Source: Pelobium sp.
Lineage (GTDB): Bacteria; Bacteroidota; Bacteroidia; Sphingobacteriales; Sphingobacteriaceae
NCBI GenBank assembly: GCA_039918235.1
Contig: JBDSHZ010000043.1
Location: 22,891 to 86,890 of the forward strand
Direction: 5' to 3'
Length of the DNA stretch: 64,000 nucleotides
Part shown: one piece after another, positions 39,942-50,715 of the stretch
Layout of the letters: each line of letters opens with the position of its first letter
Numbering within the stretch: position 1 is the stretch's first letter
Made by a program: the position numbers and the translations under genes
The notes under the pieces: generated by a model
The model's database searches: none
Seen by the model: the letters and a program-made list of their open reading frames with translations, nothing else
Told to the model about the DNA's origin: nothing

Positions 39942-39992
39942 TAACTTTGCAAATCAATGTTGAAAACTAGGTAATTTCTTTTTTTAAGTTTG
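39942..39992 (+). promoter_or_regulatory. Two tandem -7 promoter elements upstream of ffh
   Basis: TAACTTTG at 39942-39949 and TAAGTTTG at 39985-39992. Confidence 0.55.
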
Positions 39993-39996
39993 TATA

Positions 39997-40070
39997 GCGT
40001 TAACGATTGAAGCGACATCCTTTTTTCTATTTCAGAAAAAAGATACAGCGGAAAGCGTGTTAAAACGCCC
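39997..40070 (+). ncRNA. Structured intergenic element, copy A (Flavo-1-like candidate)
   Basis: GCGTT...AACGC closing stem, conserved GAAGCGACATC and central hairpin CTTTTTTCT/AGAAAAAAG; homologous to 49248-49317. The Flavo-1 assignment is from memory and unverified. Confidence 0.6.
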
Positions 40071-40143
40071 ATTACATTTTCTTAAAACATTAAACATCCT
40101 TGTTTTAATTCTAAATCAAAATATTTAAAAAGGAAATTATATC

Positions 40144-41490
40144 ATGTTTGATAATTTGCAGGATAAGCTCGAAGGAGCGTTTAAAGTATTAAAAGGACAG
40201 GGAAGTATTTCCGAAATTAACGTGGCAGAAACCATGAAAGAGATTAGAAAAGCTCTTCTGGATGCTGACGTTAACTATAAAACCGCTAAAACATTTACTG
40301 AAGAGGTAAAGCAGAAGGCTTTAGGTCAAAACGTACTGACTGCAATTTCTCCAGGTCAGTTGCTCACCAAAATCATGAATGATGAGCTGACTACTTTAAT
40401 GGGTGGAAGCGTAGAGGAACTGGATATTAAAACCAACCCGACTGTAATTTTAATCGCCGGCTTAAATGGTGCGGGTAAAACAACTTTCACCGGAAAGCTT
40501 GCGCATTACCTAAAAACACAGAAAGGCAAAAAACCTTTATTGGTGGCTGGTGACGTTTATCGCCCTGCAGCGATTGATCAATTAGAAGTTTTAGCCGGAC
40601 AAGTGGGTGCAGAGGTTTACACCAACCGTGAATCTACCAATCCTGTAGCTATTGCTATGGAAGGGATTGCCTTCGGAAAGAAAAACGGAAACAACATCAT
40701 TATTATTGATACCGCAGGTCGTTTAACATTAGACGATGCGCTAATGGACGAGATTGCCGAAGTAAAGAAGGCAACACAGCCACAGGAAATTTTATTTGTG
40801 GTAGATTCCATGACCGGCCAAGATGCTGTAAATACTGCTAAAGTATTTAACGATCGTTTGGATTTTACCGGTGTGGTTTTGACCAAATTAGACGGTGATA
40901 CACGCGGTGGTGCAGCTTTATCTATTAAATCGGTGGTTAACAAACCGATTAAATTTATAGGTACTGGCGAGAAAATGGATGCGCTGGATGTGTTTTATCC
41001 AGACAGGATGGCTTCCCGTATTTTGGGAATGGGTGATGTGATTTCCTTAGTTGAAAGAGCGCAACAACAGTTTGACGAGAAGGAATCTGCTGCTTTGCAG
41101 AAGAAAATCCGTAAAAATAAATTTGATTTTAACGATTTCTTGAGCCAGATTCAACAGATTAAGAAGATGGGTAACATCAAAGATTTGATGGGCATGATAC
41201 CAGGCGTAGGCAAAATGATGAAGAACGTGGATATTGACGAAAATGCTTTTAAAGGCATCGAATCTATCATACAATCCATGACACCTTTTGAACGTGAAAA
41301 CCCAGATAGCATTAACCAAAACCGCAGAACCCGCATTGCAAAAGGTAGCGGAACCGATATGGCGGAAGTAAACAAGCTCATTAAACAGTTTGAAGATATG
41401 CGTAAAGTGATGAAGCAATTCTCTGATCCATCTGCCATGATGAAAATGCAAAAGATGATGAAGGGAATGCCTGGAGGGGGAATGCGTTAA
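40144..41490 (+). CDS. ffh: Signal recognition particle protein
   Basis: GLNGAGKTT, DVYRPAA, DTAGR, TKLDGDTRGG, RMASRILGMGD and Met-rich M domain. Confidence 0.98.
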   Translation: MFDNLQDKLEGAFKVLKGQGSISEINVAETMKEIRKALLDADVNYKTAKTFTEEVKQKALGQNVLTAISPGQLLTKIMNDELTTLMGGSVEELDIKTNPTVILIAGLNGAGKTTFTGKLAHYLKTQKGKKPLLVAGDVYRPAAIDQLEVLAGQVGAEVYTNRESTNPVAIAMEGIAFGKKNGNNIIIIDTAGRLTLDDALMDEIAEVKKATQPQEILFVVDSMTGQDAVNTAKVFNDRLDFTGVVLTKLDGDTRGGAALSIKSVVNKPIKFIGTGEKMDALDVFYPDRMASRILGMGDVISLVERAQQQFDEKESAALQKKIRKNKFDFNDFLSQIQQIKKMGNIKDLMGMIPGVGKMMKNVDIDENAFKGIESIIQSMTPFERENPDSINQNRRTRIAKGSGTDMAEVNKLIKQFEDMRKVMKQFSDPSAMMKMQKMMKGMPGGGMR

Positions 41491-46612: not shown

Positions 46613-49132
46613 TTACTGACCTACCATAAACACTGCATTACTAAACAATAACTTTCCATTTTCCCAGAAACTGCGGAACAAAGGATCATCTGCCAAATAG
46701 ATTACACTTCCTCTGCCCATATCTTCTACACCCATTAAAGTGCCGTCCTGTAATTTCTTTTTAGTGTTGTTTCCTACAAATCCGGTCACGAAATTGCTCT
46801 TTTTAATGGTGCCCACATTCCAACCGTTTTCTAAAAAGCTATAAGTATTGGCATCCAATTTTAAGGTATAATAATAATTAGGATAACCAAAAGCCAATGG
46901 ATGCGTATTGTCTAAATCTACTTTATAAATTGCACCGGGAATACTGCTGGTTAAGCCTTCTCTTTCTCTATCCGCATAGGTTTTTATATTTTCATAAGGA
47001 TCTTTTTTAGCAGTGTCTTTTACATCCTCTTTTTTCTCTTCCTTGTTCTTTATCCCAAATCCTTTTTTATCAGCCAGCTGTTTCACCGCACCCTCAATAG
47101 CAATCAGTTTACCGCCACTTCTAATCCAATCCTGGATCTGCTGATTATCTAAATCCTTGTAATAACCGTCAGGAGCGATTAATACTTGTATGTCATTCCA
47201 TTGCACACGGTTGATGTCTGAAGTTTTAATTACCGTAATTGGATAGCCAATCTGTTGCTCAAAGAAATGCCAAACCTCACCAAAAGCTAAAGAACTTACT
47301 TCGTCGCCGGCTAAAACAGCAACTGTTGGCTTTTGAATGTAATGAATTTTTCCGGAGCCAAAATCAGCACCTTTATCTACAAAGCCAGTGGTAATTTTAA
47401 TGATTTGCTCACCGGTTTCTGCAGCAATTTTTGTGAGCGTAGATTCTAATTTCTCACCCATTTCTTCATTACTTGTTTTAGCGATGATCAAAGAACCTGC
47501 TCCAAATTTCTTTCCGTTTACCTCAAAAGGAACTTCGCTATACCTTACCTTGATATTGCTTTTAAGTAAGCCAGCTAGGAATTTTACGTCTTGTAAAGAT
47601 TTCCAATCGGCAACCCAAGCATAAGCTGCTCCGCTAACAGCAGGTTCTGCCGGAGGTGGAGGAGGTAGTATTTGTGTGGTAGCTTGTACCGATTCTTTAA
47701 GCGCATAGGCTTTTAAGCCATAAGCATAAGGTAAAGCCCATGCAGTAATGTCGTAAGTATTAGAATCTGGAATTACCGTTCTAGGCTCTAGTAAAACCCT
47801 TGCCAAAACAGATTTTGGCTGATAGGCATTCACTATTAAATCTTTTTTTTCAATTGAGAAATTCTCGCTTTTACCGGTGAAATAATTAAATCCTGAAGAA
47901 GATTTAGCAACGCCATAACCAAATTCAATTCCATTGTTCTTTAACAGTTCCGCTAATTTTTTCAAATTGGCGTCATTATCATCTTTAATCACATAAGTTT
48001 TATATTCTCCAGAAGGTGCGGTTTTAGAATCTGTGTAGAATTTTTTAAACTCATTAACTACTTTACCAGCATTTGCAGAAGTGGCTTCAATGGTAGAAAG
48101 TCCGGCGGTGTAATGGTGAGCAATCCTGTCTTTTAAAGTTAAGGTGTCGCCAAATTGATTTAAAACTGCTAACCCGGCTACGCCACCACCGCCTTGCTCA
48201 AAGGTCATCCCAATGGCGCCGTTATAAAGTGGATAGGTATCTCCGTAAGATGGGTACAATAAATCAAACACTTCTTTTGTAAAATACATCCAACCTTTCT
48301 GATCAAAATATTTCGCATTGTTTCTACCAATAATATTCTGGAATTCCCTCTGCCACGAGGTAATCGCATCATGATAAGGTTCTGCCGCAGGTGCAAAATA
48401 ATATGGATTGTTTACTCCCTGTTCATGAAAATCCACATGGATTTCTGGCAACCAGCTATTGTATAATTTTAAACGTTGCTGTGTTTCAATTTGCGTTTGC
48501 CAAGCCCAATCACGGTTTAAATCAAACAAATAATGGTTGGCTCTTCCTCCGGGCCAAGGCTCGCGGTGTTCGCGGGCATAAGATTTAGGATCAGGAATCA
48601 AGTTGGCAACCGGATTGTAAAAATTCACATAACGGTCTCTTCCATCCGGATTGATACAAGGATCAATCACTACTACCGTGTTTTTAAGCCATTCCTTAGT
48701 CTTTAAATTAGAAGGATCCAATAAGTCATAAATTGTTTTCATAGATGCTTCTGTAGAAACCGACTCATTACCATGGACATTATAACTGAGCCAAACTATG
48801 GCAGGCTGATTGGCGATTGCAGTATTTCCACCAATTCCGGCATTGCCCAAATTGCTCTTTCTAATTTCGTCTAAACGGTTGATGTTCTTATCGCTCGCTA
48901 CAAAAGCAACCAGCAATTCTCTTCCCTCATTTGTTTTGCCATAATATTGCAGTTTTACATTTTTAGAGTTGGCTGCTAAATATTCATAGTATTTTACCAC
49001 TTTATAATGTAAGGTAAAATGAGAACCTAGCTCATAACCTAAAAATTCAGATGGTGATTGCAGTTTTTGTTGTGAAAAAGTGACTTGAAAGCCGGCAAGC
49101 AAAAGAGCTAAAGAAATTAAAATTCGTTTCAT
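46613..49132 (-). CDS. M14 family zinc carboxypeptidase-like secreted protein
   Basis: Signal peptide; VHGNE, NPDGRDR, DLNRDW, DFHEQG and a C-terminal GATase-like domain. Confidence 0.88.
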   Translation of the reverse strand: MKRILISLALLLAGFQVTFSQQKLQSPSEFLGYELGSHFTLHYKVVKYYEYLAANSKNVKLQYYGKTNEGRELLVAFVASDKNINRLDEIRKSNLGNAGIGGNTAIANQPAIVWLSYNVHGNESVSTEASMKTIYDLLDPSNLKTKEWLKNTVVVIDPCINPDGRDRYVNFYNPVANLIPDPKSYAREHREPWPGGRANHYLFDLNRDWAWQTQIETQQRLKLYNSWLPEIHVDFHEQGVNNPYYFAPAAEPYHDAITSWQREFQNIIGRNNAKYFDQKGWMYFTKEVFDLLYPSYGDTYPLYNGAIGMTFEQGGGGVAGLAVLNQFGDTLTLKDRIAHHYTAGLSTIEATSANAGKVVNEFKKFYTDSKTAPSGEYKTYVIKDDNDANLKKLAELLKNNGIEFGYGVAKSSSGFNYFTGKSENFSIEKKDLIVNAYQPKSVLARVLLEPRTVIPDSNTYDITAWALPYAYGLKAYALKESVQATTQILPPPPPAEPAVSGAAYAWVADWKSLQDVKFLAGLLKSNIKVRYSEVPFEVNGKKFGAGSLIIAKTSNEEMGEKLESTLTKIAAETGEQIIKITTGFVDKGADFGSGKIHYIQKPTVAVLAGDEVSSLAFGEVWHFFEQQIGYPITVIKTSDINRVQWNDIQVLIAPDGYYKDLDNQQIQDWIRSGGKLIAIEGAVKQLADKKGFGIKNKEEKKEDVKDTAKKDPYENIKTYADREREGLTSSIPGAIYKVDLDNTHPLAFGYPNYYYTLKLDANTYSFLENGWNVGTIKKSNFVTGFVGNNTKKKLQDGTLMGVEDMGRGSVIYLADDPLFRSFWENGKLLFSNAVFMVGQ

Positions 49133-49247
49133 AATTCTAAAATACGGATTTAAGCATGTTAAAAAAACCTTGTTTTGGTAATTAAGCTTATTTTTGATAG
49201 ATAAATATTAAAAACTGATATTGTATTCAGAACTTTACAAAAAATTA

Positions 49248-49317
49248 GGGCGTTCGGGCAGGCTTTATGCTATATTCCCGATGAAAAATCGGGAGATGTC
49301 GCTTCTATCCTTAACGC
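49248..49317 (-). ncRNA. Structured intergenic element, copy B (Flavo-1-like candidate)
   Basis: Minus strand GCGTTAAGGATAGAAGCGACATC-TCCCGAT-ttttc-ATCGGGA-ATATAGCATAAAGCCTGCCCGAACGCCC; homologous to copy A. Confidence 0.6.
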
Positions 49318-49413
49318 AAATATAAACTTAACAATATGGGCAAATAATCTTTGGATTTAGCCCGAATTAAGCAACCAACTAACAATCCAACTACCTAAAA
49401 AAATACCTAACAG

Positions 49414-50715
49414 ATGAGCATTTCAGAAATCTACAACCTATATTTATCACACCCTTTAATCTTTATCGATACACGAAAGATTACCGAAGGTTGCTTATTC
49501 TTTGCCTTAAAAGGAGAAAATTTTGATGGAAATACTTTTGCAGATCAGGCGATTGAAAAAGGAGCTACGTATGTGGTGATTGATGATCCTAAATTTAAAA
49601 AGAACGACCGTTATATTTTAGTGGATGATACGTTGATCGCTTTGCAGGAATTGGCAAAACACCATCGCAAGCAATTAAAAATACCCGTAATTGGTTTAAC
49701 AGGCTCCAACGGAAAAACCACCACAAAGGAGCTGATTAATGCGGTACTTTCTCAAAAATTTAAAGCTTTAGCCACAAAAGGAAATTTAAACAATCATATT
49801 GGTGTTCCCTTAACGCTATTGGAAATTATACCTGAAACGGAGATAGCCATAATAGAAATGGGTGCCAATCATCAAAAAGAGATTGAAATGCTGAGTGAAA
49901 TCTGTCAGCCTCAGTACGGTTTGATTACCAATGTAGGCAAAGCACACCTAGAAGGTTTTGGAGGTTTTGAAGGCGTAAAAAAAGGAAAAGGTGAGTTGTA
50001 TGATTTCTTGCAAAATCATGATGGAACAGTTTTCATCAATAAAGACAATGCTTTTTTAACAGAAATGGCAAATAGCCGCAAGTTTAAAAAAACTATTTAT
50101 TATGGCAGGGATGGAAGTAGCGAGGTAAAAGGGGAACTGTTGAACAATGATCCGTTTTTAGAAATCAACTGGACTTATCGAAACCAACAATTTCAAGTGC
50201 TATCAAACTTAACCGGAACTTATAATTTTGAAAATATTTTGGTAGCAATAGCCATTGGTTTAGAATTTGGTCTTGCTGCTCATGAAATCAATAAAGGCAT
50301 TCGTGATTATGAACCACAGAACAACCGTTCCCAGATCATCAAAACAGAAAATAATACCGTGATTGGGGATTATTATAATGCCAACCCAAGCAGTATGCCA
50401 GTTGCTTTAGAAAATATGGCATCGTTAAAGGCAAAAAAGAAAGTAGTGATTTTGGGCGATATGTTTGAAGTTGGAGATTCCTCAGCGTTAGAACATGATG
50501 CAGTACTACAACAAGCATTGTCTTATCAGTTTGATCAAGTGATTTTGATAGGAGAAGAGTTTTTTAATATCAATGAGCTTGCAGATGAAGCAATTTTTTA
50601 CAGAACTACAAGCGATGCTATTATAGAACTCAAAAAAAATCCGATAAAAGATGCTTTGGTGTTGTTAAAAGGAAGCAGAGGAATGAAGTTAGAAAGTTTG
50701 ATGGAGTTGTTGTAA
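49414..50715 (+). CDS. murF: UDP-N-acetylmuramoyl-tripeptide-D-Ala-D-Ala ligase
   Basis: FALKGENFDGN, TGSNGKTTTKE, NNHIGVP, EMGANH, DYYNANPSSM, LGDMFE and KGSRGM. Confidence 0.96.
   Translation: MSISEIYNLYLSHPLIFIDTRKITEGCLFFALKGENFDGNTFADQAIEKGATYVVIDDPKFKKNDRYILVDDTLIALQELAKHHRKQLKIPVIGLTGSNGKTTTKELINAVLSQKFKALATKGNLNNHIGVPLTLLEIIPETEIAIIEMGANHQKEIEMLSEICQPQYGLITNVGKAHLEGFGGFEGVKKGKGELYDFLQNHDGTVFINKDNAFLTEMANSRKFKKTIYYGRDGSSEVKGELLNNDPFLEINWTYRNQQFQVLSNLTGTYNFENILVAIAIGLEFGLAAHEINKGIRDYEPQNNRSQIIKTENNTVIGDYYNANPSSMPVALENMASLKAKKKVVILGDMFEVGDSSALEHDAVLQQALSYQFDQVILIGEEFFNINELADEAIFYRTTSDAIIELKKNPIKDALVLLKGSRGMKLESLMELL

Follow-up and report, generated by a model that had tools for sequence, protein, structure and literature searches.

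Flavo-1 was listed by Weinberg et al. (2010, PMC2864571) as a probable non-cis-regulatory RNA. In the transcriptome of Flavobacterium psychrophilum, Flavo-1 matches were located sense or antisense to transcribed regions, and many were located in none (PMC9723704), and a 2022 review placed Flavo-1 among the abundant small RNA (sRNA) families, with no known role (PMC9029176). Rfam classes Flavo-1 as an sRNA. Here we analyzed a stretch of 64,000 nucleotides from Pelobium sp. (assembly GCA_039918235.1, contig JBDSHZ010000043.1, positions 22,891 to 86,890 of the forward strand), referred to as the window, in which two copies of Flavo-1 were present: copy A in front of ffh and copy B in front of an M14 peptidase gene. 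The host belongs to the Sphingobacteriales (Bacteroidota), and its Ffh shows 90-93% identity with those of Pseudopedobacter and Pelobium relatives. Whereas Rfam labels Flavo-1 as an sRNA, the data presented here favored a DNA repeat. With a probability of roughly 0.6, Flavo-1 in this lineage is a non-autonomous, structure-dependent repeat resembling repetitive extragenic palindromic (REP) sequences and miniature inverted-repeat transposable elements (MITEs), which is passively transcribed and is neither an RNA gene nor a promoter cassette. By analogy, it may be regarded as the Bacteroidota counterpart of palindromes of the REP, enterobacterial repetitive intergenic consensus (ERIC), and Correia types. 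The two window copies alone are ordinary additions to a catalogued motif, and the interest lies in what Flavo-1 is: if this reading is true, genome annotations mislead when they call sRNA genes at hundreds of loci per genome, and the Bacteroidota own a REP-like system whose enzyme is still to be found.

ERIC and the Correia elements of Neisseria (NEMIS) are MITE-like palindromes that are co-transcribed into mRNAs and can alter mRNA stability. Flavo-1 resembles them in size, in its imperfectly palindromic form, in its insertion into untranslated regions (UTRs) in either orientation, and in its presence or absence at orthologous sites. It differs from them in that no transposon-type target duplication or terminal inverted repeat was found, in that it has no known parent insertion sequence (IS), and in its much stronger internal covariation. 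Very small dispersed repeats that are nested within one another were reportedly described in cyanobacteria by Elhai and co-workers in 2008. These are similar to Flavo-1 in that mini-hairpins of about 20 nt sit inside larger palindromes, the modules here being TCCCGATTTTTCATCGGGA and CTGCC..GGCAG, although the phylum and the sequences differ. REP sequences and REPINs (PMC3116915, PMC6006769) are, like Flavo-1, short and imperfect palindromes that are dispersed outside genes, number tens to hundreds of copies, lie mostly behind genes, carry strand-specific bulges, and form inverted pairs when close together. However, Flavo-1 has no GT[AG]G or CGTC foot, its foot reading TTTTGCGTTAAC or AAATAAACC; it is longer (70-130 nt) and is composed of four short helices and a swappable tip; and, unlike in the REP/REPIN system with its REP-associated tyrosine transposases (RAYTs), the RAYT genes that we examined were not flanked by it. 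From the Flavo-1 motif itself, copy A showed no difference, being alike in helices, purine-rich loops, variable tip, and Bacteroidota host.

In a search of the whole window against Rfam with cmscan, the only match above threshold was copy A (39992-40066 on the plus strand; 39997-40068 with the closing helix), which aligned with model positions 1-76 of Flavo-1 (RF01705) at 58.3 bits with an E-value of 4.2e-10, the gathering score of this family being 42 bits. Copy B (49250-49325 on the minus strand) scored 30.4 bits at 49252-49325 (E-value of 9.2e-5 in a 301-nt search) and was the only one of the two to fall below the gathering score. Similarity of this extent greatly exceeds what chance would give. 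Copy B was nevertheless tied to the family by an nhmmer search with the genome's own profile (E-value of 9e-15) and by its orthologues, which score well. Its score was lowered by a tip hairpin of another kind, by an A.A mismatch within helix P2, and by ATA where the 3' arm has a conserved GGA loop; P1, P3, and the tip were retained. Copy A is a clear member of Flavo-1, and copy B is a decayed member. A preliminary description of this DNA had noted a resemblance to Flavo-1, which proved right, and every feature that it stated was confirmed, in a family that is already known. The identities between the two copies, 21/23 nt in the 5' flank and 20/28 nt in the 3' flank, were reproduced exactly. 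Closure by GCGTT and AACGC was found between 39997-40001 and 40064-40068 in copy A and, on the minus strand, between 49317-49313 and 49254-49250 in copy B. The central stems are unrelated in sequence and each is perfectly paired around a 5-nt loop (CTTTTTTCT/AGAAAAAAG versus TCCCGAT/ATCGGGA), and a comparison of tips across copies and orthologous sites indicated that fixed flanks with an exchanged central hairpin are a true property of the family.

To describe the anatomy of the element, 97 copies from three genomes were parsed in one register, with a parser that discarded copies having fewer than 8 of 10 pairs. From 5' to 3', the scaffold consisted of P1 (3 bp), an A bulge, P2 (2 bp), a G-N-A loop, P3 (2 bp), a second 3-nt loop, P4 (3-4 bp), and the tip; the 3' arm mirrored the 5' arm, with GGA loops and a bulged G. 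Between the helices lie 3x3 loops rich in purines, in which G-N-A faces G-G-A, and an A/G bulge pair; conservation of these purine-rich loop and bulge positions is confined to the Rfam strand. Copy A parsed in register with the 97 copies and satisfied the consensus fold of P1-P4 and a variable tip. Its 5' arm (40003-40019, plus strand) reads ACG (P1), A (bulge), TT (P2), GAA (loop), GC (P3), GAC (loop), and ATC (P4), and its 3' arm (40042-40058, plus strand) reads GAT (P4'), ACA (loop), GC (P3'), GGA (loop), AA (P2'), G (bulge), and CGT (P1'). The tip hairpin of copy A (40020-40042, plus strand; CTTTTTTCT, loop ATTTC, AGAAAAAAG) is of a T-run/A-run type that was found in many other copies. The tip hairpin of copy B (49276-49294, minus strand; TCCCGAT, loop TTTTC, ATCGGGA) is a mini-hairpin that also occurs alone elsewhere in the genome. 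Its core, CCCGATTTTTCATCGGG, had 16 genome-wide matches on both strands with up to 2 mismatches, which correspond to about 8-10 loci because the core is nearly palindromic, and some of these are located in the 3' tails of other copies. At least four types of tip were found on identical arms, namely the T-run/A-run stem, TCCCGATTTTTCATCGGGA, an ACCGGCC...TAATGCC type, and a CCACGGATTGCCC type; small hairpins (TCCCGA..TCGGGA and CTGCC..GGCAG) were found inserted in tips, arms, and tails, and also alone. As a separate observation, many tips of a genome of another family (G035; loci L112-L151) have an identical 5-nt terminal loop, GGGTT, with G-C as the closing pair, and the tip stems of this genome differ from copy to copy yet are always perfectly paired, that is, hypervariable but exactly complementary.

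The arms were paired with a strictness that is unlike that of the structured RNAs used as a control. Among 970 arm pairs, 950 were Watson-Crick pairs, 7 were G-T pairs (0.7%), and 12 were A-C, whereas tRNA stems of the same genome contained 49 G-U pairs in 602 (8.1%; Fisher p = 1e-14). At one arm position, TA was found in 40 copies, AT in 32, GC in 17, and CG in 8, with no wobble pair at all. In 84 distinct rows, 98.5% of the cells were paired, and 214 two-sided changes were counted against 63 in shuffles, a level that was reached by none of 500 shuffles; controls in which the register was slid paired at 30-47%. Folding of single sequences was unexceptional, with z-scores of -0.4 for copy A and -1.2 for copy B (-0.1 and -1.7 for the reverse strands), so that the evidence for structure comes from covariation within the family, which was strong. 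The two strands folded alike (mean of -21.8 versus -21.6 kcal/mol for 36 copies). Single-sequence folding and the comparison of free energies between strands were set aside as uninformative.

The draft genome of 3.4 Mb yielded at least 25 matches to the covariance model and, after a search with a profile built from these matches and inspection, about 36 copies, including compound and truncated ones. They are dispersed at a density of about 1 per 90 kb, and their spacing along contigs is irregular. Across 24 congeneric genomes, the matches varied in number from 0 (G016 and G018) and 1 (G002) to 102 (G014), and G035 had 99 matches. Such swings between congeners are those of a multiplying repeat and unlike those of a housekeeping RNA. 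As for polymorphism at the strain level, the sole other contig encoding an identical Ffh was the same sequence. A scan with the pattern of the 5' arm gave Flavo-1-like matches in 23 predicted viral contigs, and 7 of the 15 that were checked exceeded the Rfam cut-off; one of these viral copies lies antisense after a stop codon, and the two contigs that were inspected were not microviruses. BLAST of copy A against phage and plasmid collections gave no match.

Comparison of orthologous sites showed that copies are gained or lost individually. Upstream of ffh in 80 relatives, there was no clear Flavo-1, the single weak match being in L049 (E-value of 0.13). The ffh -7 promoter box of the window, TAACTTTG (39942-39949, plus strand), is carried by relatives too, as the motif CAAAATGATAACTTTG common to L027, L028, and L038, and the distance from this box to the ATG of ffh is 194 nt in the window versus about 30 nt in the closest relatives. 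Because the box is kept far upstream, the element lies inside the extra sequence, and relatives have none, copy A represents a lineage-specific insertion in the ffh leader. At the level of the window, the ffh leader (39950-40143) bears about 165 extra bases compared with the closest relatives, including a stable hairpin that is absent from them; Flavo-1 makes up roughly half of this extra sequence. At the copy B site, Flavo-1 was also found in L193 and L194, in the same place and on the same strand, with a different tip; these orthologues showed a two-sided change in P1 (A-T versus G-C), and L194 had an additional nested hairpin. In the syntenic L195, the gap is about 110 nt and free of the element. 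The recQ-kdsA gap of 19 syntenic congeners was filled by Flavo-1 in six, empty (10-30 nt) in eight, and occupied by other repeats in five; in the six, the element was always antisense and directly after the recQ stop codon, with differing tips. The kdsA tree required 3-4 state changes for this gap. Polymorphism of presence and absence, as is characteristic of MITEs, was found at all of these sites: the ffh leader, the copy B site, and the recQ-kdsA gap. We also observed that the recQ-kdsA gaps of L286, L287, L289, L290, L294, L299, and L300 contain tandem-like units of CATTCA, TCACTCATTC, and CATTCAAAAT as well as AAGT-rich units, which replace Flavo-1 or stand beside it.

The position of copies relative to genes was analyzed with a simple gene call based on open reading frames, which gave 2906 genes covering 89% of the genome. 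Of the 33 copies whose 3' side had a called gene, 23 placed the 3' end of the element against the stop codon of a gene on the opposite strand; the corresponding number in G014 was 29 of 40, giving 52 of 73 copies for the genus (p = 4e-4), often within 3-40 nt. Ten of the 33 copies were located upstream of a gene in sense, and the neighboring genes were unrelated. Neither a constant sense orientation nor a recurrent set of genes, which would mark a cis-regulatory leader, was found. Both window copies are in sense and 5' of a gene, as had been noted, copy A being 75 nt before ffh and copy B 117 nt before the peptidase gene. This placement is not the rule of the family, and the window copies, which are in sense, upstream, and in divergent gaps, are a minority class. 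In the three genomes, convergent gaps were enriched and divergent gaps depleted (p = 0.003). In G035, copies were similarly close to gene 3' ends, on both sides. Between copies less than 3 kb apart, 11 of 12 pairs were inverted (9 head-to-head and 2 inward-facing, with 1 tandem), and this inversion of close pairs results from the 3' end facing a stop codon. All six neighboring pairs less than 10 kb apart in this genome were inverted, and four successive copies at C154:27042-43554 had the orientations + - + -. Copies A and B themselves face each other over 9.2 kb containing ffh, a phosphoesterase gene, an unknown gene, and the M14 peptidase gene.

If Flavo-1 is a non-autonomous DNA repeat, the asymmetric scaffold would be the recognized part, and the tip would be dispensable, freely exchanged, and open to the insertion of smaller hairpins. 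A trans-acting protein recognizing the asymmetric loops would copy or insert the element as a folded single strand, and the strict Watson-Crick pairing would be maintained at the DNA level. Copies would be gained and lost at single intergenic sites and would accumulate where they are least harmful, that is, behind stop codons and in convergent gaps. The window copies would be passengers of transcripts, copy A as a lineage-specific arrival in the ffh leader in sense and copy B as an older one in the gap between the peptidase and Mur-ligase-family genes; an effect on expression, if any, would come from the hairpin in the UTR and would be secondary. A stricter statement, which we put forward tentatively at a little below even odds, is that Flavo-1 is not an RNA at all but the Bacteroidota equivalent of REP, a strand-asymmetric DNA palindrome with strict Watson-Crick pairing and interchangeable tips that is multiplied and lost without a linked RAYT and is set with its 3' end against stop codons in the Sphingobacteriaceae. 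Placement of the 3' end at stop codons would imply either a so far unknown enzyme recognizing single-stranded DNA in its folded form or insertion coupled to gene 3' ends.

Several results weigh against a mobile DNA repeat. No mobilizing enzyme was found, and there was no clear target-site duplication, the flanks being AT-rich and non-identical (AATAAT-like at L193). Close inverted pairs bracket housekeeping genes, with no nuclease or transposase between them. The orientation bias was seen in this genus only, G035 having 22 versus 18. At all three orthologous sites, the arms were far better conserved than the surrounding gap, and the element kept its place and orientation across species; this conservation of the arms could mean selection for function, or homogenization between copies, instead of selfish spread, and the states of the recQ-kdsA gap could be due to a single origin followed by losses. 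The threshold of the parser (at least 8 of 10 pairs) leans the pairing figures toward structure, and a small number of master copies that multiplied recently may account for the strict pairing. RNA motifs, too, typically have purine-rich loops with conservation on one strand.

Retention of site, orientation, and arms across species would also be seen if Flavo-1 were a cis-acting RNA element of UTRs, whose co-transcribed hairpin protects the 3' end of mRNA, pauses or ends transcription, or modulates a leader, as do the REP elements of E. coli and ERIC elements, and which is kept for its usefulness at each site. The location of copies 3-50 nt from stop codons and of copy A within the ffh leader agree with this explanation, and strict Watson-Crick pairing, which lets either strand fold, fits use in two orientations. 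However, there was no U-tract on either strand and no terminator in the scan, and identity as an intrinsic terminator was rejected on the former ground. The loops are conserved on one strand, yet most copies of the genus would be transcribed as the other strand; the sites of many congeners are empty, with gaps of 10-30 nt and no replacement structure; and many of the matches in F. psychrophilum lie in no transcribed region (PMC9723704). We consider a UTR element unlikely. Less probable still is that Flavo-1 is a DNA signal, folded as a single strand or a cruciform, for example a site at which a replication, priming, topoisomerase, or nucleoid protein binds or enters, and that it would have been multiplied through its use by the cell. 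Such a signal would account for pairing that is strict and DNA-like, for strand-specific conservation of the bulges and G-N-A loops, and for the presence of the element in predicted viral contigs, but congeners with 0 or 1 copies manage without it, the spacing along contigs is irregular, and the orientation of copies had no link with local GC skew, a proxy for the direction of replication (16 versus 12). The same result led us to reject a replication-strand bias of the kind expected for IS200/IS605-like elements or priming sites.

The remaining possibility, that all copies, or copies A and B at the least, are sRNA genes or leader cassettes that bring along a TAnnTTTG promoter of their own, was judged very improbable. 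It draws on the Rfam class, on the position of both window copies in sense upstream of a gene, and on the boxes TAAGTTTG (39985-39992) and, on the minus strand, TATATTTG (49324-49317), which exist as described and are placed for a start at the 5' end of the element. Across the family, however, 10 of 115 copies had a TAnnTTTG box reading into the 5' end, compared with 4.7% of intergenic background windows, a small excess that is partly due to the element's own TTTG, and the orthologues of copy B read TTTTACG where copy B has the box. The box is not a part of the family, and a promoter role for TAAGTTTG on the plus strand is opposed by the conserved ffh box TAACTTTG, which lies 43 nt upstream of it; TAAGTTTG may match by chance or mark a second promoter. 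No intrinsic terminator adjoining copy A or copy B was found in the terminator scan, which makes a stand-alone sRNA gene unlikely, and the combination of a conserved promoter of its own and a terminator that such a gene would have was not found. In addition, most copies are antisense to their neighbors. The three roles that the preliminary description had offered thus fared differently: the sRNA became unlikely with the missing terminators and the rarity of the box, the leader held in position for copy A only, which lies inside the ffh leader, and the mobile promoter-carrying cassette was supported as mobile but not as promoter-carrying. To the left of copy B, a -7-like box on the plus strand, TATTTTTG (49189-49196), was aligned in the orthologous gaps of the window, L193, L194, and L195, and may serve as a promoter. 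Its conservation suggests that copy B is transcribed in antisense, probably within the leader of the Mur-ligase-family gene.

Returning to a mobile DNA repeat as the preferred explanation, we searched for genes that might mobilize it. Y1/RAYT genes (PF01797) were present in most genomes, and their presence did not track the copy number of Flavo-1. The four PF01797 genes of this genome and those checked in G014 and G035 were flanked by their own, different repeats and not by Flavo-1, and mobilization by a RAYT or in the manner of IS200 was rejected for lack of both associations. The RAYT-flanking repeats found here fit the "atypical structures" reported for Bacteroidetes subclass 2.6 (PMC6006769). 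A parent insertion sequence was not found for Flavo-1. Composite elements were likewise rejected; the genes bracketed by close pairs were truA, cobT/bluB, a mutS2-like gene, an SMR transporter gene, and a peroxiredoxin gene, and the two truA cases were a coincidence because paralogues are involved. Autoregulation of ffh by a mimic of the signal recognition particle (SRP) RNA in its leader was rejected, as the ffh leader of 80 relatives lacks the element, which occurs at about 35 unrelated loci. An integron attC identity did not fit either: the copies are dispersed and form no arrays, and GCGTTAAC and GTTAAAAC misfit the core consensus RYYYAAC / GTTRRRY.

The genes next to the two copies were assigned from Pfam domains. 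Downstream of copy A, ffh (SRP54; 40144-41490, plus strand) encodes SRP54_N, SRP54, and SRP_SPB. Downstream of copy B in sense, the M14 peptidase gene (46613-49132, minus strand) encodes Peptidase_M14, and the Mur-ligase-family gene (49414-50715, plus strand), which is divergent from the peptidase gene, encodes Mur_ligase, Mur_ligase_M, and Mur_ligase_C.

The four Y1/RAYT genes of this genome with their own REP-like repeats are located at C94:6100-7100, C31:34800-36000, C130:18100-19400, and C157:19400-20400; the repeats read ACATAGCCCACGGTTTAAATCGTGGGCTATGG at C94 and CCCCACTAGCGCAAGTCTTAGCGGG at C31, and at C130 a direct repeat of about 110 nt is present on both sides of the gene. In G035 (C12; L308:1700-2560), the inverted repeats around a subclass-2.6-like RAYT gene start with CCCGATAGCGCGGAT, which shares its first 8 bases, CCCGATAG, with the 5' arm of the Flavo-1 copies of that genome, CCCGATAGTAGCGGCAT; the two may be distantly related or alike by chance. 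A second dispersed palindrome, GGTCTGTG-NNNN-CACAGACC, was found at about 16-30 loci, for example C13:31106-31933, C4:20991-23181, C29:5666-5720, and C83:7535. It is often paired, is sometimes followed by a T-run, and in several cases adjoins Flavo-1, and it may be a family of terminators or another repeat.

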